Source of the DNA: Longimicrobiales bacterium
GTDB taxonomy: Bacteria > Gemmatimonadota > Gemmatimonadetes > Longimicrobiales > Gaopeijiaceae
Assembly (NCBI GenBank): GCA_965198065.1
Contig: CBDAON010000003.1
Location: forward strand, 1 to 64,000
DNA: 64,000 nt
Direction of reading: 5' to 3'
Shown in pieces: positions 41,708 through 60,942 of this stretch (position 1 is the first letter of the stretch; the number at the start of each line of letters is the position of its first letter). The position numbers and the translations under genes are program-made. The notes under the pieces were generated by a model. It worked only from the letters and a program-made list of their open reading frames with translations. It was not told the origin of the DNA and did no database searches.

Positions 41708-43774
<2,067 letters not shown>

Positions 43775-48155: not shown

Positions 48156-48617
48156 TCACTTCCTTGAGGATTCCCGGAATTCTTCTTCACCCCAGTCGGC
48201 TTCTGCGAGTACCCTTATCCGGTTCCACTCGTACCGATATACCTCGGACTTTTCGCTACCCTTTCCCTCTCCCTCTAGCCATACCTTGTACTCGGGAAAT
48301 CTCCCTTCGTAACACCTTCGGCCTTCCTCCTCCTCTTTACCTCTCGTGAGCCGTACTCGACCCCACATTTGTATTCCATCTTTCCAATCGTCCCATTCCT
48401 GCCGCGAGTCGTACACTGCCATTGCAGCTTCTCTCTCTCCTCTTAGCAGGTCACCATGTCCACTTCCCCTCACTGAGATAAAATACACGTTTAACCCCTC
48501 GTCGGCCGCGATATATGCCGTAAACACATGAGGTGTTCCGTCTTTATGGGTAAGCCCAATCGTCGCTAATTTTACTCTTCCTAGAATTTCCTCGGCTTTC
48601 TTCTCTATTTCTGTCAT
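48156..48617 (-). CDS. Pyridoxamine 5'-phosphate oxidase-like FMN-binding protein (AT-richer segment)
   Basis: LATIG...DGTPH...YFIS...H and GIQMWG split-barrel pattern. Confidence 0.7.
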   Translation of the reverse strand: MTEIEKKAEEILGRVKLATIGLTHKDGTPHVFTAYIAADEGLNVYFISVRGSGHGDLLRGEREAAMAVYDSRQEWDDWKDGIQMWGRVRLTRGKEEEEGRRCYEGRFPEYKVWLEGEGKGSEKSEVYRYEWNRIRVLAEADWGEEEFRESSRK

Positions 48618-49501
48618 ACTGTCATTCCCCCGTCCACCGGCAGCGAGATTCCGTTAATTCCGCTGCTTTCTTCTGCCGCCAAGAAAGCTGCCGCCCATGC
48701 TACTTCTTCGGCCCTGATCAACCGCTTGATCGGCAAGTCTTCGATCACTTCTGTCAGGTACTGCTCCAATCCCTCCGTGCCAGCTTGCTCTGCTTCCCGC
48801 GTATCGAGCACCTGAAATAACTGTGCCAGCCACGGTCCAAGATCGGCGCCGTCCTTGCCGGTGCGTGTCTCGAGAAAATCGAAGAAGATGTCGCGCGGCT
48901 CGAAGATGCCCGTGTCGTCGGCGAACAGGCAGAACACGATCCGCACCAGGAACCGTTCCAGGTCGTGGCCTCGGTAGCCCGCGGTGCCGAGCGCATCGTG
49001 AAGGCGCCCGACGAGCTCAGCAGCCTTGATGTTGACGGGGTCTTGGTCACGGAAGCTCCGGCGCTGCACTCCCAGGATGAAGCCGAACGCCTCGACATGG
49101 CTGGGCAGGTCAGCGAGAGCGAAGGCAACCGTCTCCCGCTCATCAAGATCGTGGAGCTCGAACGTCTGGAAGTCGCTCACCAAGATGTAGCGGGGGCGAT
49201 CGGCCTCAGCGAGCGCATCAAAATACTCTCCGGCCTGTCCGTAAGCTTTATCAAGATCGCGCCCGGCGCTCTTCTGTTCGACGATCAGGACGCCCGGCCA
49301 GAACAGGTCGATGAAGCCGGAGCTATTGTCCAGCTTGGCGACATGCTCCTCGTACCGCGCGACGTTTCGCCGCCGGACGTCGAATACCTCGAAGAAATCG
49401 TTGTAGAAGCTCTGCGTCTCACCTTTCTCGTATGCCGCATCTCGCCACTCATCGGCGAAGGATGCGGCGCGCACACGCACTTCGTTCCAGGACAGACGCA
49501 T
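48614..49501 (-). pseudogene. MmeI-like type IIL RM N-terminus fused to an SDR oxidoreductase C-terminal tail
   Basis: EKGETQSF, IDLFWPG..IVEQKS and RIVFCLFADDTGIF, then LPIKRLIRAEEVA...LPVDGG. Confidence 0.8.
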
Positions 49502-49593
49502 CAGCCACGCCGCCTCTTGCACCCATCATGGGTCGTGGCCCGACCTTGGGCGGACCAACGGTGAGCGTCGGCATGGCCTCCTGGGCTGCGGTA

Positions 49594-49914
49594 CTAGCGG
49601 GATATTGGATCACGGGACCTCATATCATCCAGCCATCCGCTTTCCCGCCGCGCTTGCGCGAGCTCATAGCTCGCCTGCATCCGCATCCAGTGATCGGCGG
49701 CACCCCAGCCAATAGCCTCTAAAGCCAGCGCCATGTTCGCGGACACCCCTGCCTTACCGTTCAGTAGACGCGATAGCGTCCCCCGCTCGCACCCCAGACG
49801 CACGGCCGTCTCGGTCACATTCCATCCGACCTCTTCCATGCTCTCACGGATCAGTTCGCCCAGGTGCGGGGGGTTCAGCATCGGACCTACACGCTCGCTG
49901 TCGGTGTCGTTCAT
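49594..49914 (-). CDS. higA: HigA family antitoxin
   Basis: PPHLGELIRE...LSRLLNGKAGVS..MAL...WMRMQASYEL. Confidence 0.9.
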   Translation of the reverse strand: MNDTDSERVGPMLNPPHLGELIRESMEEVGWNVTETAVRLGCERGTLSRLLNGKAGVSANMALALEAIGWGAADHWMRMQASYELAQARRESGWLDDMRSRDPISR

Positions 49915-49933
49915 GCTCTGTCCTCCTTTCCGG

Positions 49934-50206
49934 TCAGTGATAGTCGACCAAGTCCACATCCACGGCTTCGCCGTCCTCGAAGCGGAACACCACGCGCCAG
50001 TTGCCCGATACGCGCACACTCCATTGGCCCGCTCGGCTACCCTTCAACGGATGCAGCCGAAAGCCAGGCGCGTCAGCGCTACCGGGATGCGTCGCTTCCT
50101 GCAGCCGGAATAGAATGCGTCGAAGTCGTGGCACCAGATCCGCCGGCAGCCGAGCCCGCTTGTCCTGCTCGTGCAGCGCCCGCAGTCCCTTGTGCCTGAT
50201 CTTCAT
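49934..50206 (-). CDS. higB: HigB (RelE/ParE family) toxin
   Basis: IRHKGL...RLHPLKG...WSVRVSGNWRVVFRF...VDLVDYH. Confidence 0.92.
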   Translation of the reverse strand: MKIRHKGLRALHEQDKRARLPADLVPRLRRILFRLQEATHPGSADAPGFRLHPLKGSRAGQWSVRVSGNWRVVFRFEDGEAVDVDLVDYH

Positions 50207-50319
50207 AGATCTACTGTAGCGCGTCGCGTTACGCGCCGCCAGCGTTCCCCAAGTTTTTCGAAAGCCTGAATTGCCGAAGGCTTTGCGGCGCGATCTGGTC
50301 GGCTCCCGGTTCCTCCCCG

Positions 50320-50480
50320 GTCCTGAGCCAGTCCAATGTAGTCGGCCCATGCCTGCGTCATTTGTCGCCCCTCGGGCAGAAACGCGGTTCGGTTGTAGGC
50401 CCTTCCGCGTTGGGATCCCTCACCGCGTGGGTCAGCTGGTGCTCGATGAAATCCGGCCCGGTTGCGGTGCGGATAGCCCG
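50320..50480 (-). pseudogene. P4-like integrase C-terminal fragment
   Basis: IEHQLTHAVRDPN / RAYNRTAFLPE.RQMTQAWADY. Confidence 0.7.
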
Positions 50481-50639
50481 CGTTCGGGAAGACGTAGCGG
50501 CCATGCCCAGGCAGAGGGCGAACTCGAGAGATGGTCGTTCGGCTACCTGTCCACACACGTCTCACGCAGTCGCATGGATTCCCGGTCGTGAAGAGGGGTA
50601 TAATGAGGGGATCAAGGCGACGATCTGGCCGGGGCGGTC

Positions 50640-51182
50640 GAGCATCCGGATCTCTGCGACGCGGCACTCTCCTACCTGCTCGAGCGGATGCGCTTGGAGG
50701 TGGAGGACCCGTCCGAGGCGGCGCGGCTGAAGCTGATGGTCGTGGACGAAGCCTGGCGCTACCTGCAGGACCCCGCCGTGCTGAATTACTTGGCCGAGGC
50801 GGCGAAGACGTGGCGGAAGAAGAACGCCGCGCTGGTCCTGGCCACGCAGTCCGCGGTGGACGTCACGGCCACGCCCGGCGCTGTGGCGCTCCTCGAGTCG
50901 ATCCCGACCAAGCTCTTCCTCGCGAACCCCGAGCTCCCCGACGAGATCGGGGCGCTGTTCCGGCTGAACGAGTCTGAGCTGGCCCAGGTCCGGGGCCTGA
51001 TCCCGAAGCGCGAGCTCTACCTCCGCCGCCCGGACGGGGCGGCGGTGCTCCGGCTCGAGGTCGATCCGGAGAGCTACTGGCTCTACACCTCCTCGGCGCT
51101 CGATGCCGAGGAGCGCGCCCGGGCCATCGTGGTTCTCGCGAGCCGAGACGATCCCACCCCCACCCCCAACGCAAGGAGCTGA
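50640..51182 (+). pseudogene. VirB4/TrbE ATPase C-terminal fragment
   Basis: Walker B VVDEAW, KTWRKKNA, ATQS and PTKLFLANP motifs. Confidence 0.8.
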
Positions 51183-51188
51183 TACGCC

Positions 51189-51902
51189 ATGCGACCACCA
51201 ATAACACCCCTCGTTCTAATCGCGCTTCTCCTGGCTGCCCTCCCTGTTGCGGCCACCGCGCAGCAGGAGAACGACGACGCGTTCCTGCGGGTGACGGTCC
51301 CCGAGGAGGGCGAGGACCGGATCCACCGGCTGCGCACCCGGGTCCGCCACACGACGGTCATCGTGCTGCCGCCCGGCGAGAACATCCTGGACTTCGTGGC
51401 CGGCGACTCGGAGTACTGGCATCTGACGGGCGCGGCGAATGTCGCGTTCCTGAAGCCCCTCGCTTCGGACGCGGCGACCGACGACGCCCGTGCTGTGTTC
51501 GTCTACGCCGAGCCCGGCCACGAGACCGCCACCGCGCTCCGCTCGTGGGGCGATGCGCACCGGCGGCTCTGGGATGCGCTCAGGGAGCGGGGCCGATCCG
51601 TCGAGGTCGTGGCCGTCGTCCGCACCCCCAGGGAACTCGGACGGGCACGGACGATCCTCGGGAACTGGGCCGAGGCGCCCGCCGCCTCTGGCGCCGTCGA
51701 TCCGGCCCGCCGCGAGATCGCCCGGATCGAGCAGGCGATCCGCGGCATGGACGACGCGGTGATCGACAAGCATGGCGGGCTGCAGGGCTGCCTCGAGCGG
51801 ATCGTCGAGCTGGAGGACCGGCTCCGTTCCGCGCGCCCCGGAACGACGATCGACGGGTTCGCGGCATGGCGTTCGAGCCGGCTTCCCGGAGGCACATCTT
51901 GA
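51189..51902 (+). pseudogene. VirB9/TrbG N-terminal fragment fused to an unrelated C-terminal fragment
   Basis: Signal peptide and TTVIVLPPGE.I...AGDSEYW...FLKP, then an abrupt switch near 51480. Confidence 0.6.
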
Positions 51903-51963
51903 CCGCCGGTCGCCAGGGGCCGACGCCGATCCGGAGCTTGCGGCCGTGGACGGGAGCGACCCC

Positions 51964-53322
51964 CATAAGCGCTAACTTGTTTGCATTGCCATGGTGTTGT
52001 ATAGTGAGGGCATGAGCAGAACCGTGACAGAGGCGCCGACAAGTGAGGACTGGGACCTGCTAGTATCGTTCTTCCCGAGCAACTGGCAGGAGCTGGCAGC
52101 GGAGACGGGAGCGCTGCGAGGGTTGCGCAAGGACAAGTCGCCGGAGAAGCTGCTGCGGACGCTGCTGATCCATCTCGGATGCGGGCATTCGCTGAGAGAA
52201 ACGGTCGTGCGGGCTCGGCAGGCGAGCTTGGCGGATCTGTCGGACGTGGCGCTGCTGAAGCGGCTCCGGAAATCGCGGGACTGGCTGTATGCGTTGTGCG
52301 TGGAACTGTTCCGGGAGCACGGCATCGCGGTCTCGTCGGACGGGGGCTTCCAAGTGCGGGTCTTGGACGCCACGACCGTGCAGGAGCCGGGCCGGACCGG
52401 ATCGTTGTGGAGGCTGCATTACAGCGTCAACCTGCCTTCGTTGGGCTGCGACTTCTTCAAGCTGACCGGGACGGAAGGGTCCGGGGCGGGCGAGTCGTTC
52501 AAACAGTTTCCGATCCGTCCGGGTGACTACGTGCTGGCCGACCGGGCCTACTCGAACGCGGCCGGGATCCAGCATGTGGCGATGGCCGGCGGTCACGTAA
52601 CGGTGCGGGTGAACACCGGGACGCTGCCGCTGGAGACCGCGGACGGTCAGCCGTTCGAGTTGCTGACAGCCGTGGAATCCCTCGAGCGGCCTGGACCGGT
52701 CGGCGCATGGGCGGTGCGCACGGCGGCCAAGGCCGGCCCCCCGGTCGCAGGCCGAATCTGCGCCGTGCGCAAGACCGACGAAGCGATCGCGGCCGCGCAC
52801 GCCAAGATCCGCAAGACAGCCCAGCGCAAGCAAAGCCAGGTCCGGCCGCAAACCCTGCATTTTGCCCGCTACGTCATCGTCTTCACGACCTACCCCCCGG
52901 AGGAGTTCTCGCCAGCCGACGTTCTGGAATGGTACCGCCTACGCTGGCAGGTCGAGCTGGTCTTCAAGCGCTTCAAGTCCCTGGCCCGCCTCGGACATCT
53001 GCCGAAGTATGATGACGAAAGCGCGCAGGCCTGGCTGTACGGCAAACTGCTCGTGGCACTGCTGGTCGAGAAAGTCGTGCGCCACGCCGTGGCTATTTCC
53101 CCCTGGGGATACGACGTCGCGACAACGTCAGCCCCGCAGCCCTTGGCGTGACTTCAAGTTCGCACTCCACCAAGTCGCACGGGCCATCGAACCGGAGTTC
53201 TCTCTCGAAAAGATGATCCGCGAGTGGAGCAAGATCTCGGCTTCCCTGGCCGAACCTCCAAGGCAGAGACTCAACCAGGTGGACCGCCACTTCCCGATAA
53301 ACTACACAAGTTAGCGCTTATG
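51964..53322 (+). mobile_element. IS4-family insertion sequence with intact ends
   Basis: IRs CATAAGCGCTAACTTGT / ACAAGTTAGCGCTTATG; 11-bp TSD GGAGCGACCCC at 51953-51963 and 53323-53333. Confidence 0.9.
52012..53151 (+). CDS. IS4-family DDE transposase
   Basis: LDAT, ADRAY and YRLRWQVELVFKRFKS (YREK) motifs. Confidence 0.92.
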   Translation: MSRTVTEAPTSEDWDLLVSFFPSNWQELAAETGALRGLRKDKSPEKLLRTLLIHLGCGHSLRETVVRARQASLADLSDVALLKRLRKSRDWLYALCVELFREHGIAVSSDGGFQVRVLDATTVQEPGRTGSLWRLHYSVNLPSLGCDFFKLTGTEGSGAGESFKQFPIRPGDYVLADRAYSNAAGIQHVAMAGGHVTVRVNTGTLPLETADGQPFELLTAVESLERPGPVGAWAVRTAAKAGPPVAGRICAVRKTDEAIAAAHAKIRKTAQRKQSQVRPQTLHFARYVIVFTTYPPEEFSPADVLEWYRLRWQVELVFKRFKSLARLGHLPKYDDESAQAWLYGKLLVALLVEKVVRHAVAISPWGYDVATTSAPQPLA

Positions 53323-53609
53323 GGAGCGACCCCCCGTCTCGGCATGCCTCGATCGGCATCGGGGAGGATCGGCATGGGCACGCCCATGCCACCCTCCCCG
53401 GCGGGGTCGCTCCCGAATCAGGTATCCGTGCCGGAAGGCCGTTCAGCGCCGCTGCGGGGCGGCGGATCGCCAGTTCGCCAGCTGTCCAGCCGGTGTGTCC
53501 GCGCTACCGCAGAGGACCGGGCGCGGACCCGCGGAGAACGCCAGACCGTGGGCTGCCGGGAACGTCGAGCCATGAGTCGGCGTTTCGGATCCCCGGAGAC
53601 GTTGGGATG

Positions 53610-53715
53610 AGGTAAAGCCCCGGTTCGAGAGTTCCGGGCTCGATCTCCTCCCCGGCCTTGAGCCGGTCCAGATAGTCGGCCCAAGCCTGCATCATGTGTC
53701 TACGCTCGGGCAGCG
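53610..53715 (-). pseudogene. P4-like integrase C-terminal fragment
   Basis: LPERRHMMQAWADYLDRLK. Confidence 0.65.
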
Positions 53716-53739
53716 GCGGGTCGCGCATCCGTCGAAACC

Positions 53740-54108
53740 TTGCCCGCGACTTGGCGGAGACAGGCCAAGGCGCTCCGCCGGTACGGGGGCGAGACTCCGG
53801 CCGTGGCGCTCGAGAGTTGCGCGGCCGAGCTCGAGACCACGCTCCGGGAGCGGGACGAAACCACCCTCTCCCTGACGGAGGCCGCCAGGGAGAGCGGCTA
53901 CTCCGCGGACCACCTCGGCCGTCTCGTCCGCGACGGTAAGATCCCTAACGTCGGAAGGCCCGGCGCGCCCAGGATCACCCGCAGGCACCTCCCCCGGAAG
54001 CGAATGGCCCAAGTGCCCGCCAATCCGCCGCTGGTCAAGAAGCCTTCCCCACGCCAGGTTTCAAACGCGCAGATCGTGCAGTCCATCATCGAGAGAGGAA
54101 TCGAATGA
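53740..54108 (+). CDS. HTH excisionase-like protein coupled to the integrase
   Basis: LSLTEAARESGYSADHLGRLVRDGKIPN; stop overlaps the integrase start. Confidence 0.7.
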   Translation: MPATWRRQAKALRRYGGETPAVALESCAAELETTLRERDETTLSLTEAARESGYSADHLGRLVRDGKIPNVGRPGAPRITRRHLPRKRMAQVPANPPLVKKPSPRQVSNAQIVQSIIERGIE

Positions 54109-55268
54109 TGGCACGCACGAAACGAAGCCGGCGCAGCTATGGCACCGGCGAATGGGGCCGGAACCGGGTACGGGTCTTCCCGGATCCCAAGACCGGCCTG
54201 TTCCAGATCGAGTGGCGCGAGCGTGGGCGCAGGCTGAGCCGGTCGCTCAAGCACCGCGACTGGGCTCGGGCGAAGAAGCAGGCGGACGAGCTTGCCGCAG
54301 GCTTCGCCGGGCCGGTGATGGAAGGCAAAGCGGAAGCCGAGCCCGAGCCGCTCACTCTGGAGACGCTTTTTGACATCTACGGTGAAGAGGTGACGCCCAC
54401 CAAGCGTGGGCAGTCGCGGCTGCACGACAGGGCCGCGACGGGGATGTTCCTCGGTTGCTTCGGCAGGGACCGGAAGCCCGCAACGCTCTCCCAGCGCGAC
54501 TGGGACCGGTTCATCCGAGAGCGTAGGGCGGGCAGGGTTGGCCCGAGCGGCAAGCTGGTATCCGACCGGATGATCGAACGGGACCTCAAGTTCCTGATCG
54601 CGGTCCTCAACTGGGCCGCAAAGTCCAGGGACGAGCAGGGCCGCCTGCTTTTGGAAGCGAATCCCCTGAGAGGACTGAAGACGCCCAAACAGAAGAACCC
54701 GGCCCGAATCGTCCTGGCCGAGGAGGAGTACCAGGCGCTTCTACGGGTGTCCCGGCAGGTCGACTGGCGGTTCCGCGTCGCGCTCGTCCTCGCCCACGAG
54801 ACGGGACACCGCATCGGCGCAATCCGCAAGCTCTGCTGGTCGGACATCGACATGGAGGGCAGAACCATCCGCTGGCGCGCCGAACACGAAAAGTCGGGCT
54901 ATGAGCACCGGACACCGGTGACCGCCGAGGCGCTTGCCGCCCTGGAGGAGGTGCGAAAGAGGAATCCCGGTATCGGGCACGCGCCCGTGCTGCCCTCGCC
55001 GCAGGATCGCTCGAAGTGCGTGGGCTCCTGTCAGGCGTACGGGTGGTGGCACAAGGCGGAGGGGCTCGCGGGGCTTGAACCCAAGCGTGGGAGAGGCTGG
55101 CACTCCCTGAGACGAAAGTTCGCCTCCGACCTCATGGACCAGCCGCTCAAGGTGCTCTGCGAACTCGGCGGCTGGAAGGAGGCCAAGACGGTGCTGCAGT
55201 GCTACCAGCGGGCCGACGAAGGGCAACTCCGGAAGGCCCTAGATCACCGCCGCAGAGTTCGCGCCTGA
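54105..55268 (+). CDS. Tyrosine recombinase/integrase, intact
   Basis: ETGHRIG (R), K, HSLRR (HxxR), GGW and Y catalytic pattern. Confidence 0.9.
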   Translation: MMARTKRSRRSYGTGEWGRNRVRVFPDPKTGLFQIEWRERGRRLSRSLKHRDWARAKKQADELAAGFAGPVMEGKAEAEPEPLTLETLFDIYGEEVTPTKRGQSRLHDRAATGMFLGCFGRDRKPATLSQRDWDRFIRERRAGRVGPSGKLVSDRMIERDLKFLIAVLNWAAKSRDEQGRLLLEANPLRGLKTPKQKNPARIVLAEEEYQALLRVSRQVDWRFRVALVLAHETGHRIGAIRKLCWSDIDMEGRTIRWRAEHEKSGYEHRTPVTAEALAALEEVRKRNPGIGHAPVLPSPQDRSKCVGSCQAYGWWHKAEGLAGLEPKRGRGWHSLRRKFASDLMDQPLKVLCELGGWKEAKTVLQCYQRADEGQLRKALDHRRRVRA

Positions 55269-55321
55269 GCCCAATCAGCGGGAATCAAACGGCGGGAATC
55301 CAGTCCGAAATGCCCGTAAGT

Positions 55322-56488
55322 TTAATTACCCCAAGCAGATGCAAACCTGTCGACTTCTGCCGCCTCGACCCTGTTCTGTACCACATGTGCGAGGGCCGCT
55401 TCGATGACCTCGCGGGGATGATCCGTTTCCTCGGCCGCCCAGTCCCGGAAACTGGACCTGAAACCGTGTGGAACGGCCGCGATCCCATGCTTCCGGAACA
55501 TCCGGCGCAGTTGCTTCTCCTCGAGCTGCTTACCGACTCGATTGGGAAACAGATACGGACTGGTTCCCTTCACCAGCGTCCGTGCCCCGTCCAGAATCTC
55601 CAGTGCACGACCACACAGCGGGACCCGGTGCTCGCGGTTCGCCTTCGTCCGCCTGGCCGGGACAGTCCACACACCCTCGTCCCGATCAATCTCGGTCCAC
55701 TCCGCCCACCGCACCTCACCCCATCGTGCCGCCGTCAGCACCAGGAACTCGAACGCCAGCCGGACGGCCAGCGGCACCGTTGATGCCCGCGCGGTCTGGA
55801 TGGCCGCGGCCACCTCTCGATGCGGCAGCGCCCGCATGTGCTGCACGACGTCACGCTGGGGACCCAGGACCGGGTCGATCCGGTTACAGGGGTTGTCGAT
55901 CCGGAACTCCATCGCCACCGCCCACTCCAACACCGCGCGGATGCGCTGCCGCAACCGCCGGGCGGTGTCCGCCTTCGTGTGCCAGATGGGAGCGAGGATC
56001 TCCAGCACGTCGGCGCTAGTGACCTCCGAGACCGGCATCTTCCCGATGCGCGGGAAGGCGTACCGCTCGAAGGTCAAGATCCACTCGCGGCCGTGCACCC
56101 GACTTCGCCAGCCGGCTTGCTTCTGTTCTACTACACGCGCGGTGGCTTCGGCGAAGCTCGGTACGCCCTGCCTACGACGCTTCTCGGCAAGCGGGTCGCC
56201 GCCCTAGCGGGCCAGCTTACGGTTGGCCAGCGCCTTTTCCCGGGCCTCGGCGAGGGAGACCAGCGCGACGCTGCCGAGCCCGAGCTCGCGGCGCCGACCC
56301 CGGATGACCAGGCGCTGAATCCAGCTTCGGGTTCCGCTTGGCTGGACGAAGAGGTACAAACCGTTGCCGTCCGCGTGTCTTCCAGGCGGGGCAGTGCGCA
56401 CGAAGGCGGCCGACAGGGCCTTGTCTGGATGGCGGCCCTTGGGCTTGGTTTTCCGCGGCGGAGTGGCCTTGTTCGTTACAGTAACCAT
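55322..56488 (-). pseudogene. P4-like (Arm-DNA-binding) integrase with internal stop/frameshift and truncated C-terminus
   Basis: GRHADGNGLYL, ELGLG, LTAARWGE, HGFRSSFRDW and EAALAH motifs; TAG at 56204-56206. Confidence 0.85.
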
Positions 56489-56636
56489 CCCCGCATAATA
56501 TAGGGGATGGAGGCGGATATCAATGGATGTTGTGAGCGGAGTGCGTTGCTAGTCTATGCTCGTAACTTACTGTTATAAAAGTCAGTTATGGACTTAACTG
56601 CGAACTGTGTACTTGACGCAAATACGGATACCTTGA

Positions 56637-57056
56637 ATGGGTGACAGACCGGCGCATCCACAGGTTTGGGCAAGAGTGAACGCCCATGTAGATGAAGGTG
56701 TGGCGGATCTCATATCCGCCCTCTCAAGATTCAAGGGCCTACGTACCCTCGAAAGCTGTCAGGGTGAGCCAGACGGTGCGGCCTGGGCATGCTTCGTGGT
56801 GGGAGCAAACGTGGGGTGGAGGCCGCTAGCGGATCTCGTGTTGGGTTACCTGGGACCGGCTTTGGCCTCAGACCTTGGAGACATGGTGGACCTTTCGATT
56901 CACGCTACGGAAGCGGGCGGGGCGCAGGGAGAACTCACGGTGCGCTCGGAAGCGATGAGCGACACCGTGAGCCTCCTGCTCACACTATCGGCTGATTGGC
57001 AGCCTAGAGCGGCTTACCAAACGTGCGAGTGTTCTTGTGACACGTCTTACACATAG
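56637..57056 (+). CDS. Hypothetical protein (transposon cargo)
   Basis: 139-aa ORF containing VDEGVADLISAL...TLESCQG; family not identified with confidence. Confidence 0.6.
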   Translation: MGDRPAHPQVWARVNAHVDEGVADLISALSRFKGLRTLESCQGEPDGAAWACFVVGANVGWRPLADLVLGYLGPALASDLGDMVDLSIHATEAGGAQGELTVRSEAMSDTVSLLLTLSADWQPRAAYQTCECSCDTSYT

Positions 57057-57234
57057 CCAACAGGTTTCCGAGGCCGTCACCGCCACCGCGGGTGCGGTGG
57101 TGGGCATGCCAGTCGGAACCGTGCAACCCGTGCTTGCAACGACCAGTGTGGTGCGAGCACACCGACATGGTGCACTCGCAACGTCCGCCTGCACGAATAA
57201 AGAGAAGGCGTCGAGTATCATTGGAAACAGCCAT
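57004..57234 (-). CDS. Small HNH endonuclease
   Basis: RAGGRCEC...HAHH...GGGDGLGNLLAMCKTCH; RBS GAGGA. Confidence 0.8.
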   Translation of the reverse strand: MAVSNDTRRLLFIRAGGRCECTMSVCSHHTGRCKHGLHGSDWHAHHRTRGGGDGLGNLLAMCKTCHKNTRTFGKPL

Positions 57235-57294
57235 TGTAATGCGTCCTCGATTTGGAAAATGAATGTGAATGAAAGCACGTTTCAAAACGCCTTC

Positions 57295-57342
57295 TTAAAC
57301 GACGTTTTAAACGACGCATTAAATGGCGTTTTAAGAGCACTT
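57295..57342. repeat. Four tandem degenerate 12-bp repeats
   Basis: TTAAACGACGTT TTAAACGACGCA TTAAATGGCGTT TTAAGAGCACTT. Confidence 0.7.
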
Positions 57343-57405
57343 TCTTTTCGTGATTCTTTTCCTCGACGCAATTACACGATATACTTTATCTGTAAATGCG
57401 TGAGG

Positions 57406-57508
57406 TGCGGACGGCCGGAGTCGAACCGACACGGGGCGTCAAGGGTCCGAGAGAACCCGCCCCACCAGCTTCCAAAGCCAGCGTGTTTACCAGTTTCGCC
57501 ACGTCCGC
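57406..57508 (-). tRNA. Non-canonical tRNA: Leu-like type II body, anticodon TGG (Pro), ~34-nt variable region
   Basis: Acceptor GCGGACG/CGTCCGC plus A73; D region GGCGAAACTGGTAAACAC; anticodon arm CTGGC-TTTGGAA-GCTGG; T arm GTCGG-TTCGACT-CCGGC. Confidence 0.85.
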
Positions 57509-57570
57509 CAAACGCCTGGGGGCAGCCTTACGGCCACCCCCAGGAAGACCCCGGTTACGGGGTTAGGATT

Positions 57571-57582
57571 TTATGGCGGCAT
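57571..57582 (-). other. SD-led minigene ATG CCG CCA TAA (Met-Pro-Pro-stop)
   Basis: AAAGGAG-atcacc-ATG CCG CCA TAA, followed by hairpins at 57548-57563 and 57515-57544. Confidence 0.7.
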
Positions 57583-57662
57583 GGTGATCTCCTTTCTGGC
57601 GTGTCAGCGCCGGTTAGGGTGAGTGGTGCGCCCCCATCGTCGGAAACGGCGGTGGGGGTCTG

Positions 57663-58127
57663 CTATTCTAGTCCACCGATCTCCTCTTGCTGTGCACCTC
57701 CCGGCCTCGTCCATTCTCGGAGACCGTATTCGCCGGTATCAACCCGAATGAACTGGCCACCCTCCTTGTGTGATCGTCGGAGCATAGCGCCGAGGCTGTT
57801 GGCTAACTTCCTTCGGCCTTTCGCATACGGAAGTCCACGCTTCAGTAATGCGTCGGCGATATCTCGTGGTTGCATCGGTTGGCGGACCTCAAGCAAGCAG
57901 GACTCAGCAACCCCCTGTAGGGTAAGGCGGGGATTACTGTACCGACCGCCGTTAATAGACGGGGGTGCCTCGGACGCCTCCTCGGTTATGGTAGCCGGTG
58001 CTTGCGCTTCGGGTTCGCTCAGGTACTCGAACAGTATCTCTCGCGTGTTGCGGAGCTTGCGGGCGCGAGCTTCGTGGAATTGGATATCGCGATCAAGTCG
58101 CTGGATTAGGTCCATGTCGCTGGGCAT
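57663..58127 (-). CDS. Coiled-coil plus winged-HTH (HARE-HTH-like) protein
   Basis: N-terminal heptad segment; PMQPRDIADAL...FIRVDTGEYGLREW. Confidence 0.7.
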   Translation of the reverse strand: MPSDMDLIQRLDRDIQFHEARARKLRNTREILFEYLSEPEAQAPATITEEASEAPPSINGGRYSNPRLTLQGVAESCLLEVRQPMQPRDIADALLKRGLPYAKGRRKLANSLGAMLRRSHKEGGQFIRVDTGEYGLREWTRPGGAQQEEIGGLE

Positions 58128-58269
58128 GTTCGCATCCTACCCTAAAGGGGTTAATGTGACCGAAGTTAACGGCAGCGTGCGATCTTTGCTAGGGTGTAGT
58201 GAGGACAACGCGACGACAGGCCGATCTTGCTTGTGGAATCAGTGTTAATCGTATTATAGGAGGACCCAT

Positions 58270-58461
58270 ATGGAGGCCGAAGAAAAGCCGACACCGGACA
58301 ATAAGAAAACCGGTCCTGACGCAGATCGCGTGAAGCTCGAAGGAGACTGGGAGGATGCGGTGAAGAAGGCCCTGAAAAAGAAAAAGCCCCCCGAGGGCTG
58401 GCCGCAGGAGGACGAGCAGAGCGGGGAGTCTGTCAGTGATTCAGGATCGGACAGAGACTGA
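58270..58461 (+). CDS. Small charged protein of the kind seen beside IS1595 transposases
   Basis: Strong RBS AGGAGG; RVKLEGDWEDAVKKALKKKKPPEGWP. Confidence 0.7.
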   Translation: MEAEEKPTPDNKKTGPDADRVKLEGDWEDAVKKALKKKKPPEGWPQEDEQSGESVSDSGSDRD

Positions 58462-59193
58462 GTGCCAGCCACCTATCGAATGCGTGTGTGCCCTTACCAC
58501 TGGCCCGAGTTGCTGGTCGAAGCGCTTAAACCGGGGGTTGTTCATGCGCCTGTACCAGTAGATCGCTGCGATGGTTCTGCCGATACCGTCTGCCGCTTGA
58601 ACCCCATGATACCACTCCGACGGTACGAGGAGGGGGATCTCTGTAACGCGAGCGTCGGCTGTCCGAAAAACAGGGTCCGAGTAAATAAGACTCTGAGCGG
58701 ACGCAAGAACGCGCGTATTCTGAGTCTCGGTGCGGCGGTCCATTATCACCACCCCCCGGCCCACACGCGATCCTGCTTTGTCGTTAAGATATTTTTCAAA
58801 CCTACGCAGTGTACTTTGCATGAGGCTGGTATAAAGCCCGGAGTAGGAGTGGTTCGCACGAGTAGAGTCTTTCTTGACTCCGTTTGCAAAAACGGCGCCA
58901 CCGCACGAACCAACCAACCCGAGCACCTGAGATATAAAGCGGATGTCGCGTCGCGTTCTGAGCGTCTTCGCTTCAAAGCGTTCCGGGCGGATACCGTGCA
59001 AGGTCTTGGCGCGAGATATTTCCCTGCTATAGAAACGACACTTCAAGCGGAAATAGGACCGGTCGAAGTCACGCCACCGTTCGCCAGGAATGACAAATCC
59101 CGCAAAACCGAAAAGCGGGTGGTGCTGGTGTCGCGGATCGGTGGGATCATAGGGGCCTGGATGACCGAATTCATCGAGGTAGAGAAGGTACAT
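58441..59193 (-). CDS. DUF3800 domain protein (predicted RNase H-like fold)
   Basis: MYLLYLDEFGH N-terminal motif, IMD, and C-terminal SEWYHGVQAAD. Confidence 0.88.
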   Translation of the reverse strand: MYLLYLDEFGHPGPYDPTDPRHQHHPLFGFAGFVIPGERWRDFDRSYFRLKCRFYSREISRAKTLHGIRPERFEAKTLRTRRDIRFISQVLGLVGSCGGAVFANGVKKDSTRANHSYSGLYTSLMQSTLRRFEKYLNDKAGSRVGRGVVIMDRRTETQNTRVLASAQSLIYSDPVFRTADARVTEIPLLVPSEWYHGVQAADGIGRTIAAIYWYRRMNNPRFKRFDQQLGPVVRAHTHSIGGWHSVSVRS

Positions 59194-59199
59194 GGAGGC

Positions 59200-59290
59200 A
59201 TGCCCCGGTACAAAATACACAGAGCCCGCGCCGAAGCGCGAGCCCTGGGGAACTGCTTGACCCAAGCATCCGGAGACACAAGGGCTGGCA
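59200..59290 (-). ncRNA. Candidate structured RNA leader upstream of DUF3800
   Basis: Hairpin TGCTTG/CAAGCA; CAGGGCTCGCGC-TTCG-GCGCGGGCTCTG followed by TGTATTTT. Confidence 0.55.
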
Positions 59291-59384
59291 GTATTACAAC
59301 AGATTGCTATACACAGTATAGCCTGTCAAGGATCCCCTTTGAAGGACTCCTGGGTACTCCTGGGTACTCTGGGGGGAACTTGGT

Positions 59385-60365
59385 TCATGGATGACGATAC
59401 ATGAGCCGCTTCCCCTCGGAGCCCCGGATAGCGGTCTTGATCCTTTCTCCGTCGTCAATCTTGCGAGTATTCCACCGAAACTCGAACTCGGACACGTAAC
59501 GGTGCAGATGCTCTTTGCTGACGTGGTGGAAGGTCCCCATGACGCCCCTCTTGAGAAGGGCAAAGAACCCCTCAACGGTGTTCGTTGTGGCGAGCACGTC
59601 CCCGTCCATGCGTGCATACTCGTTCTGCGAGTGACGAACCGTGTGATGCCCGTTGGCAAACTCGCGTCCCACTGGTATGTAATGCCTGGCTTCGTCAGTA
59701 TGGAGCCGAGCCGCTTCTGGGTCCACGTTCTCCCGAAGGTTGCTAGCGAGGTTCGCAGAGGTCACGTTCGTTACGACCTTGGCGCGCGCCTCTCCGTCCC
59801 GCTCGACGATGGCAATGACGGGCGTCTTGTTGTCCATACGGCGAAACCCACGCGGACGACGCTTCCCGCGCACCGAGCGGGGGCGGATTTTTCCACCGAC
59901 GAAAGCTTCATCCGCCTCGACATCGCCAGTAAGTGGACCGCCCGTGTTGGCTGCACCATTCATCGCGTATCGGACCCGGTGCATGAGGAACAAGGCGCTC
60001 TTGTACGTGAGGCCGGTTTGCCGTTTGATCTGCAAAGCGGACACGCCCTTCTTGCTGGAGCACGCCGCCCAAAACGCAAAGCACCAATGCCGCATGGGAA
60101 TCCGGCTGTCCTCCATGATGGTTCCGATGCGGACCGTGAACTGACGGGCGCACCCACGGCACCGCCAGAGGTACCGGGCGTTCCGCTCACCGGTATTCCG
60201 ATCCTTCATCATGTAGACATCGACATCGCCACAACGGGGGCACGACGGCTCCCCCTCCCAGCGCATGTCTTCGAGGAATTCGACCGCTGTGTCTTCGTCG
60301 GCACAGGCCATTGGGATGGCCCCGACGATGTCCGATTTATCGCCCGCGATCTTCGACATTTTCAC
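59385..60365 (-). CDS. IS1595-family transposase
   Basis: Zn ribbon CPRC..CRGC, KGVSALQI HTH, VEADEAFVGG, HTDE, NTVEGFF and HLHRYVSEFEFRWN motifs. Confidence 0.95.
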   Translation of the reverse strand: MKMSKIAGDKSDIVGAIPMACADEDTAVEFLEDMRWEGEPSCPRCGDVDVYMMKDRNTGERNARYLWRCRGCARQFTVRIGTIMEDSRIPMRHWCFAFWAACSSKKGVSALQIKRQTGLTYKSALFLMHRVRYAMNGAANTGGPLTGDVEADEAFVGGKIRPRSVRGKRRPRGFRRMDNKTPVIAIVERDGEARAKVVTNVTSANLASNLRENVDPEAARLHTDEARHYIPVGREFANGHHTVRHSQNEYARMDGDVLATTNTVEGFFALLKRGVMGTFHHVSKEHLHRYVSEFEFRWNTRKIDDGERIKTAIRGSEGKRLMYRHP

Positions 60366-60486
60366 TCACCTTTGGAGGCTTGAATTCACACTCTAAAGAT
60401 AAGGGATGTACGTGTTTGCGTCAAGTATCTAGTTCCGACTTAACTGGACGATACTGTACACCGGTCCAGATAGTCTGCCCATTCCT

Positions 60487-60942
60487 GGGTCGTGCGTGGC
60501 TGCCCGAGCACCCGGCACGCTCTCCTCTCCGACGCCCCGAGCTGCTGACGTACACGCACCACACAACGTCGTCGGCCCTCGGGGCTCAGAAGTTTCCCTT
60601 GGCCGCTTCCTCCACGATCAGCTTGTCCAGTGTCAAGTCCGCCACTGCTCGCTTCAGGCGCCCGTTCTCGCGCTCGAGCTCCTTCAGGCGCCGTGCCTGG
60701 CTCACCTTCATCCCGCCGTACTCCCGCCTCCACCGGTAGTACGTCTGCTCGGTGATGCCGAGCTCCCCCCTGATCAGCTTCACGGATTTGCCGCCGGCCA
60801 GACCGACCTCTGCCTCCCGCACTGCAGTGATGATCTGCTCCGGAGTGTGTCGCTTCCTTCCCATCCTGACCTCCTCGCTGAAAAGCTTCGGACCAGGTCG
60901 ATCCTAACATTGCACCTGGTCTCGTTTCAGCGGGTCAGGTCA
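60487..60942 (-). mobile_element. IS3-family remnant (IRL, orfA 60586-60864, truncated orfB)
   Basis: TGACCTGACCC.. end; RLKELERENGRLKRAVADL; AAGGGAAAC slippery site; SERRACRVLGQPR then a break. Confidence 0.85.

Follow-up and report, generated by a model that had tools for sequence, protein, structure and literature searches.

An intact IS1595-family transposon of 3,838 bp (56600-60437) lies in the window, the whole 64,000-nucleotide stretch of DNA analysed here, and its inverted ends and 8-bp target duplication enclose a tRNA gene with a leucine-type body and the proline anticodon UGG. The transposase gene of the same element carries the matching codon CCA at codon 18 (60314-60312) and codon 326 (59390-59388), both on the minus strand. 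We consider it somewhat probable that the tRNA, which is likely charged with leucine, inserts leucine at these two codons, the active transposase being a minority recoded product.

The tRNA gene has all the features that the earlier note had described: the leucine-type body, the proline anticodon, the long arm and a CCT end. RF00005 from Rfam matches on the minus strand at exactly 57508 to 57406 with 41.4 bits (gathering score 29), whereas ARAGORN with default settings did not call the gene in the window. A relaxed ARAGORN run was set aside, as most of its 42 calls were spurious and the structure it gave for the tRNA at 57406..57508 was wrong. The acceptor stem comprises 7 bp with G1:C72, followed by A73 and then CCT in place of CCA. 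The D-arm (GCG-AAACTGGTAAA-CAC) is of the leucine type with a C11.A24 mismatch, and A15:U48, G18G19 and A20a are present in the core. The anticodon stem (CTGGC/GCTGG) includes two G.U pairs and holds the loop TTTGGAA, with UGG and A37. The variable arm forms two helices with a 3' bulge (-18.2 kcal/mol when folded alone), and the T-arm is regular. Folded in isolation, the gene does not take the cloverleaf as its minimum-energy structure, which is no better than that of shuffles (z -1.45); the evidence for the cloverleaf is thus the covariance match and the relatives. The main contig of the host encodes three proline, five leucine and four serine tRNAs of the ordinary kind, and a normal tRNA-Pro(UGG) is present, so the window tRNA is an extra, single-copy gene.

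Relatives were searched for with a pattern in which a proline anticodon has to follow a leucine D-arm. It matched 12 viral loci, 82 genome loci and at least 120 metagenome loci. In 85 parsed matches (genome scan plus window) the anticodon was UGG 71 times, AGG seven times and CGG six times, and a full-cloverleaf filter was passed by 55/71, 3/7 and 3/6 of these, respectively. The metagenome matches listed (at least 120) contributed 72 new, distinct and passing genes, while 48 were left out because they were duplicates, had been counted before or did not pass. The resulting set contains, among the matches listed, 135 distinct UGG genes from many phyla. In 59 aligned relatives, 18/20 pairs have changed on both sides, which was reached by 0/500 shuffles, and covariation is found in all 12 pairs of the 7/5 acceptor branch; compensatory changes in homologues, a point raised in the earlier note, are therefore present. 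The aligned rows were pre-filtered for pairing, and the figure of 98.9% paired is inflated for this reason. A37 was fixed by two of the search patterns; where the pattern left the position free, A37 occurs in 11/12 viral loci and 8/11 UGG genes picked by their transposase. A BLAST search with the 301-nt region over 100 relatives returned only two weak tRNA matches. The odd tRNA is a real, conserved family.

This conservation bears on two of the alternatives. It is highly improbable that the gene encodes a non-translating tRNA-like RNA, be it a processing signal or a decoy for anticodon nucleases, as the earlier note had considered, or that its anticodon is an assembly error. While 84/99 distinct phage-contig matches are tRNA-like elements without a regular anticodon arm, the anticodon of the window tRNA is common to the 135 listed relatives and covaries with transposase codons, and such covariation needs decoding. 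A sequencing slip is contradicted by the same 135 listed relatives, which keep the leucine-type body, UGG and compensatory stem changes. Decay, the other doubt raised at the outset, is excluded at the level of the family by these listed relatives. It is unlikely, though compatible with any other reading, that the family is functional and the window copy alone weakened or decaying. This copy is the sole one with C11.A24 (1/135 listed), belongs to the 3/135 listed relatives with two G.U pairs in the anticodon stem, and sits in an element that is single-copy in the host genome. Yet the ends, the target duplication, the transposase, both CCA codons and the minigene described below are intact, and with the family model, which it helped to build, the copy reaches 74 bits, inside the span seen for unrelated loci. 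A weak tRNA may, moreover, itself keep mistranslation low. The oversized variable arm emphasised in the earlier note is real in the window but optional in the family, in which it measures at most 20 nt in 85/135 and at least 27 nt in 50/135 listed relatives.

Other leucine-bodied or tRNA-like genes were seen along the way. A search pattern that accepts every tRNA of the leucine type with a long middle was rejected, as it found mostly other tRNA-like elements (regular anticodon arm in 15/99 distinct matches). About 1,300 viral stretches (e.g. L004-L123) have a leucine D-arm and a T-arm, mostly without a regular anticodon arm and often behind a GAAA hairpin. Nine viral contigs (L140, L141, L143, L144, L167, L170, L183, L194, L220) carry phage Asn (GTT) tRNAs with U1:A72, G73, a leucine-type D-arm and a variable arm of 29-31 nt, and seven more (L152, L169, L193, L221, L225, L249, L257) carry long-arm tRNAs with a leucine-type D-arm, A73 and Gly (GCC, ACC, TCC) or Ala (AGC) anticodons. 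Within the host's phylum, alanine anticodons (CGC, AGC) likewise occur in tRNAs with a leucine body (L553, L554, L557, L559, L560, L562, L567-L569). Leucine-bodied tRNAs of this phylum with other anticodons, mostly alanine, had an IS1595 transposase in 0/10 stretches examined.

Which amino acid does the tRNA carry? Bacterial LeuRS relies on A73, A15-U48, G18G19 and A20a, and ProRS on G72, G37 and G15:C48, according to the available part of PMC9976931. The conserved positions of the family are those of bacterial LeuRS and unlike those of ProRS: among the matches listed, A73 is found in 132/135 and U48 opposite A15 in 135/135 UGG relatives (A15, G18G19 and A20a being fixed by the search pattern), and G1:C72 in 122/135, whereas C1:G72, and with it the ProRS determinant G72, occurs in only 8/135. 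The window tRNA shares G35, G36 and A73 with tRNA-Pro, but has G1:C72, A37, A15:U48 and a long arm instead of C1:G72, G37, G15:C48 and a short variable loop. Its anticodon, UGG, is not one of leucine. The serine identity elements G73 and G2:C71 are missing; among the matches listed, G73 occurs in 1/135 relatives and C2:G71, a SerRS antideterminant, in 114/135. From these positions, the window tRNA is most likely leucylated. Within the missense proposal of the earlier note, leucine at proline codons thus emerges as the best supported version, and the serine version finds no support. The carrier transposon, the matching transposase codons and the Pro-Pro minigene, which are the chief findings here, were not noticed in the earlier note. 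The host has a bacterial LeuRS; its single ProRS, encoded on another contig, belongs to family I (eukaryote/archaea-type, 563 bits), with family II below the cut-off. In the available part of PMC11229370, the family I ProRS of Bacillus thuringiensis suffers only a 9.6-fold loss on G72C, so that some prolylation of the window tRNA is possible and the earlier argument from C1:G72 against proline identity is weaker than stated.

Siguier et al. are said to have described the IS1595 family in 2009 as having a DDE transposase with a zinc ribbon, short inverted ends, an 8-bp target duplication and passenger genes. The window element has a transposase, terminal inverted repeats, an 8-bp duplication and cargo (Table 1). 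It differs from other passenger-gene elements of the family in that its cargo includes a missense-type tRNA matched to transposase codons, which our literature searches did not turn up. Genes loosely similar to the winged-helix gene lie upstream in relatives too, and the HNH-like protein (57004..57234) gave no Pfam match.

Table 1. Features of the IS1595-family element and its tRNA (window positions).
Feature	Position	Strand	Basis or remark
Terminal inverted repeat	56600..56626	+	8-bp target duplication ACTTAACT at 56592-56599
Open reading frame inside element, 139 aa, no family	56637..57056	+	
HNH-like zinc-binding protein, 76 aa, downstream of tRNA, variable cargo	57004..57234	-	HNH among Atlas neighbours (score 0.98; family on 33% of the first cluster)
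Four 12-nt-spaced repeats, possible operator sites, in the AT-rich gap that separates tRNA and HNH-like gene	57285..57337	.	
tRNA gene, leucine-type body, UGG anticodon, A73, CCA end not encoded	57406..57508	-	Rfam, sequence, relatives
Variable arm of tRNA, 34 nt	57464-57431	-	
UGG anticodon of tRNA	57474-57472	-	
Two hairpins between minigene and tRNA (57563-57548; 57543-57516, 12-13 bp with GTAA loop)	57516..57563	-	
Shine-Dalgarno AAAGGAG (57595-57589) and minigene ATG CCG CCA TAA (57582-57571), Met-Pro-Pro-stop	57571..57595	-	sequence
Hairpin just past stop codon of winged-helix gene	57631..57658	-	
Winged-helix protein (HARE-HTH), 154 aa, likely regulator, same strand upstream of leader	57663..58127	-	PF05066 E 1.1e-6
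Lys/Pro-rich small protein, 63 aa, recurrent in these elements	58270..58461	+	cluster in 8 loci; motif matches; Atlas score 0.90, unnamed clusters
DUF3800 protein, variable cargo	58441..59265	-	PF12686 E 1.4e-8
IS1595-family transposase, 326 aa, intact	59385..60365	-	NF033547 182 bits (cut-off 75); PF12762, PF12760
Terminal inverted repeat	60411..60437	-	8-bp target duplication ACTTAACT at 60438-60445

The association of tRNA and transposon recurs. An IS1595 transposase lies near 40/69 tRNA relatives, and in 23 of those 40 loci, ends with an 8-bp duplication enclose both; a transposase match was also found in 37/72 new metagenome loci among the matches listed, many of these loci being short. 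When picking was based on the transposase only, a close match was present in 18/400 other genomes of the phylum. The 19 loci picked by transposase alone comprised 11 with a leucine-type UGG tRNA, one with CGG, one unclear and six with none; one of these six, L526, carries two serine-type tRNAs. Seven plasmid IS1595 loci gave no match with the family tRNA model. In a quick tree, the neighbours of the window transposase include named Gemmatimonadota records as well as genomes from the class and family to which the host belongs, so that the host is likely a member of this phylum. Over a dozen further matches to IS1595 transposases are present in the host itself.

Several further observations concern these loci and the surroundings of the element. 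Tandem irregular tRNAs with serine-type bodies and CAA, TTA or TAA anticodons lie beside related transposases (L524:4493-4672 and L526:5330-5525), and in another host IS1595 element, on contig C4, a second tRNA-like stretch comes after an irregular tRNA that scores 32.8 bits with Rfam (L487:1385-1560). The element is embedded in a dense mobile region (48600-56500 and 60440-60910) containing an MmeI-like fragment, an HTH antitoxin-like gene, conjugation gene fragments, a DDE transposase and two integrases (55322-56488, with a stop that breaks the frame); to the right of the element lies a short IS-like fragment. Farther away, a group II intron (41708-43748) contains a reverse transcriptase/maturase gene (41867-43270, minus strand).

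The codon pattern was analysed in 51 transposases that lie beside UGG tRNAs. At residue 18, CCA is used 21 times and CCT four times, with no CCG or CCC; at residue 139, where the window transposase has GCC, CCA accounts for 17/22 proline codons, and at residue 326 for 31/31. Across these three fixed sites, 69/78 proline codons are CCA, as opposed to 8/172 in five other conserved proline columns. At least one CCA is present at the three sites in 44/51 transposases and none in 7/51, and neighbouring codons show no local A bias. With a median identity of 45-53% and a third-base identity of 0.36-0.39, the transposases are so distant that shared recent ancestry does not explain the CCA pattern, though kin are not independent. 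When the C-terminal site was anchored by its motif, CCA appeared in 27/43 genes and no other proline codon in any; the remaining 16/43 have Ala, Gln, Ser, Thr, Gly and, only twice, Leu. Overall, 176/591 proline codons of UGG-associated transposases are CCA versus 10/103 in a comparison set that is imperfect, since an irregular tRNA is present in L487 and a tRNA-like gene of the leucine type, with TGC, in L475. No fixed CCA was found in the small-protein and winged-helix genes. An overlapping antisense gene, in which CCA would be read as TGG, is unlikely, as antisense stops lie within 25 codons in 9/21, 7/17 and 13/31 cases. In long GC3-rich host frames, CCA is the rarest proline codon (5.6%). 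There is strong sequence evidence that the window tRNA decodes the message of its own element's transposase.

In line with this, the codon changes with the anticodon. Four of the eight loci with an AGG tRNA have a transposase, and 4/4 use CCT at the C-terminal site; in a quick tree these elements fall in two separate places, once as a close sister of a UGG/CCA element. The AGG tRNAs are of uneven quality, with poorly paired anticodon stems in L290 and L497 and an atypical T-loop in L332. Among eight ochre-type loci, the one with a transposase (L473) has TAG exactly at the C-terminal site. The leucine-bodied ochre (UUA) tRNAs themselves (L463-L473) are eight distinct genes, all with A73, and only that of L473 adjoins an IS1595 transposase. 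The element with a CGG tRNA (L277) has CCT rather than CCG at residue 18, where four UGG elements also have CCT. L526, which is without a UGG tRNA, keeps Pro18 by CCG; this supports the link between codon and tRNA but shows that proline is tolerated at residue 18.

Whether leucine would suit these sites can be judged from a sister clade of 120 proteins, found via another host IS1595 transposase, irrespective of cargo. At the C-terminal site, leucine stands in 110/120 of them, as counted by motif because the column alignment is misplaced there. Residue 18 is I, V, M, L or F in 119/120 and proline in none. The leucine and other hydrophobic residues at these two sites count for leucine as the fitting residue. 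Residue 139 is proline in 106/120, so leucine is not the native residue at this third site. Among the 120 closest homologues of the window transposase, 119 have proline at residue 18. A search for CCA or CCG in leucine columns of the consensus of these close homologues gave 0/98, which is uninformative because they carry the same prolines. In the predicted structure (mean pLDDT 91.5), residue 18 lies with high confidence within a helix (12-22), whereas residue 326, the last one, is poorly resolved; no solved structure for a relative was found.

That proline is native to residue 139 in the sister clade, and to residue 18 among close relatives, also leaves room for the opposite effect, in which leucine inserted at CCA damages prolines required by the transposase and so limits the activity of the element. 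Insertion sequences commonly limit their own transposase. We regard such a brake as distinctly unlikely, since the most conserved prolines avoid CCA (8/172) and leucine resembles the sister-clade residue at 18 and 326. Another reading is that the codon match sets translation speed or supply rather than the amino acid, with a proline- or leucine-charged tRNA relieving a pause at the rare CCA codon, in the way that Streptomyces bldA for UUA is a precedent for supply control. The proline native to residue 139, the proline kept at residue 18 in L526, the family I ProRS together with G35, G36 and A73, and the rarity of CCA in the host all fit this idea. It nevertheless has to contend with leucine determinants that are nearly fixed and G72 in only 8/135 listed relatives, with a host that already has a normal tRNA-Pro(UGG), with a C-terminal proline that is never encoded by another codon in UGG elements, and with a stop codon at this very site in the ochre-suppressor element. 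On balance we judge it unlikely.

In the scenario that we favour, the tRNA gene would be expressed and its product charged with leucine by the host LeuRS. The leucylated tRNA would then compete with tRNA-Pro(UGG) at CCA codons, and the fraction of transposase that receives leucine at both sites would be the active form, leucine activating rather than inactivating the enzyme. As CCA is the rarest proline codon of the host, damage to host proteins may stay limited. Alternatively, the host proteome is the target, and stall-induced Pro-to-Leu mistranslation serves as a toxin (addiction, abortive infection) or as a polyproline rescue, with the transposase codons a side effect. Pro-Pro minigenes and the toxin-antitoxin-like or SecB-like cargo of some elements would suit this role. 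SecB-like genes lie directly upstream of the tRNA in L283 and L309, an arrangement like that of toxin-antitoxin-chaperone modules. Natural missense tRNAs, furthermore, are toxic in E. coli (available parts of PMC5389517 and PMC10404621). An element with a toxin tRNA should, however, avoid CCA, yet the UGG-associated transposases use it more than the comparison set does (176/591 vs 10/103), and EF-P and TrmD are present in the host, for which we had considered, and rejected, the loss of either. We therefore deem action on the host proteome improbable.

Upstream of the window tRNA lies a minigene encoding Met-Pro-Pro (Table 1), which begins six bases after AAAGGAG and ends 62 nt before the tRNA. 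We defined such minigenes as a ribosome-binding site, ATG and Pro-Pro in a frame of at most 25 codons, at most 400 nt upstream of the tRNA. They occur in 14/69 loci, with 1.13 in shuffles (maximum 6, 100 runs), none on the reverse strand and two downstream. This was replicated in the metagenome loci, where 10/72 of those listed have one (shuffles 1.03, maximum 3, 60 runs). Pooled, 24/141 relatives among the matches listed carry a minigene versus about two expected, and 117 are without. The prolines lie in frame 13 times and in the other two frames once and twice. L525, whose transposase is 60% identical to that of the window, has the same minigene codon for codon. In 14/17 strict minigenes the stop directly follows the prolines, which are encoded by CCG (23), CCT (12), CCA (5) and CCC (3). 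The mixed codons and the position of the stop point to a sensor of any stalling at Pro-Pro; when EF-P is missing, ribosomes stall at consecutive prolines (PMC5021804), and control by leader peptides is known, including mgtL (PMC12360218; both sources in their available parts).

The minigene of the window can pair with the 5' end of the tRNA (-21.6 kcal/mol), and covering it raises the predicted acceptor pairing from 0.000 to 0.51 in the window and from 0.04 to 0.96 in L525. The switch in the window is weak, as 20/60 shuffles of the minigene stretch also give at most 0.05. No common folding switch was found among 17 leaders, and no minus-strand terminator was called in the window leader. How the leader works is thus a guess: a ribosome stalled on the Pro-Pro minigene might free the 5' end of the tRNA or let transcription continue, and the stalling would thereby raise tRNA output.

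In the full texts searched, which include few subscription journals or bioRxiv supplements, we found no description of a tRNA of the leucine type that has a proline anticodon and is carried by a transposon. The closest parallel is provided by the allo-tRNAs of Mukai et al. (PMC5389517), which, in the available part of that report, likewise combine a long variable arm with a mismatch of body and anticodon identity, act in missense or nonsense suppression and sit near toxin-antitoxin and transposon-related genes. A published UUA allo-tRNA shares its anticodon arm with the leucine-bodied ochre tRNAs of L463-L473. The acceptor branch of allo-tRNAs is of the 8/4 or 9/3 type, and their identity is mostly that of Ser or Ala (PMC5389517; review PMC7609411, available parts); the window tRNA differs in its 7/5 branch, leucine D-arm and A73. 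In the portion of the PMC5389517 supplement available, neither a UGG anticodon nor a window-like sequence was found, and the available text describes neither a codon match in a neighbouring transposase nor a leader peptide. The tRNA-ProX of Streptomyces and Kitasatospora (PMC10404621; review PMC11415595, available parts), natural bacterial dual-identity tRNAs that mistranslate sense codons, go in the opposite direction. They join a Pro body to an Ala, Asn or Thr anticodon, usually beside a dedicated ProRS, whereas the window family has a leucine body, a transposon as carrier and a suggested target gene. No synthetase was seen among the listed cargo of the tRNA-bearing elements.

Two known modes of control are also comparable. 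In the IS1 and IS3 families, programmed frameshifting yields the active transposase as a low-frequency recoded product. The minority recoded transposase proposed here would be alike, but the change would be from sense to sense and made in trans by the element's tRNA, with no cis signal. The leader recalls the mgtL, tnaC, speFL and hisL attenuators, in which a short upstream frame with stalling codons precedes the regulated gene (available parts of PMC12360218 and PMC5021804), mgtL depending on proline codons (PMC12360218). Here too, in-frame stalling codons stand behind a ribosome-binding site and are enriched in relatives. In contrast to the attenuators, as far as the available parts of these sources go, the regulated product would be the tRNA that reads the sensed codons, and the minigene has only 3-6 codons with the stop usually right after Pro-Pro.

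Taken together, we tentatively propose, as a possibility of almost even weight, that many IS1595 elements use a widespread private code, in which leucine-charged UGG, AGG and, in one case, UUA tRNAs are matched to sites in their own transposase and the active enzyme arises only by recoding, while in the subset with minigenes transposition is tied to stalling. If this is true, a selfish element would, by a single tRNA acting in trans, give a sense codon another meaning in its own gene. This would represent a new control of transposition and a natural example of ambiguous decoding for which the target can be named. Many IS1595 transposases would then be mis-predicted at key residues, and tRNAs of this kind would have been missed or called tRNA-Pro. 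The elements would further supply natural suppressors that insert leucine, together with a minimal sensor of stalling at Pro-Pro. As a source of missense and ochre tRNAs that is itself mobile, they would also bear on the origin of codon reassignments.
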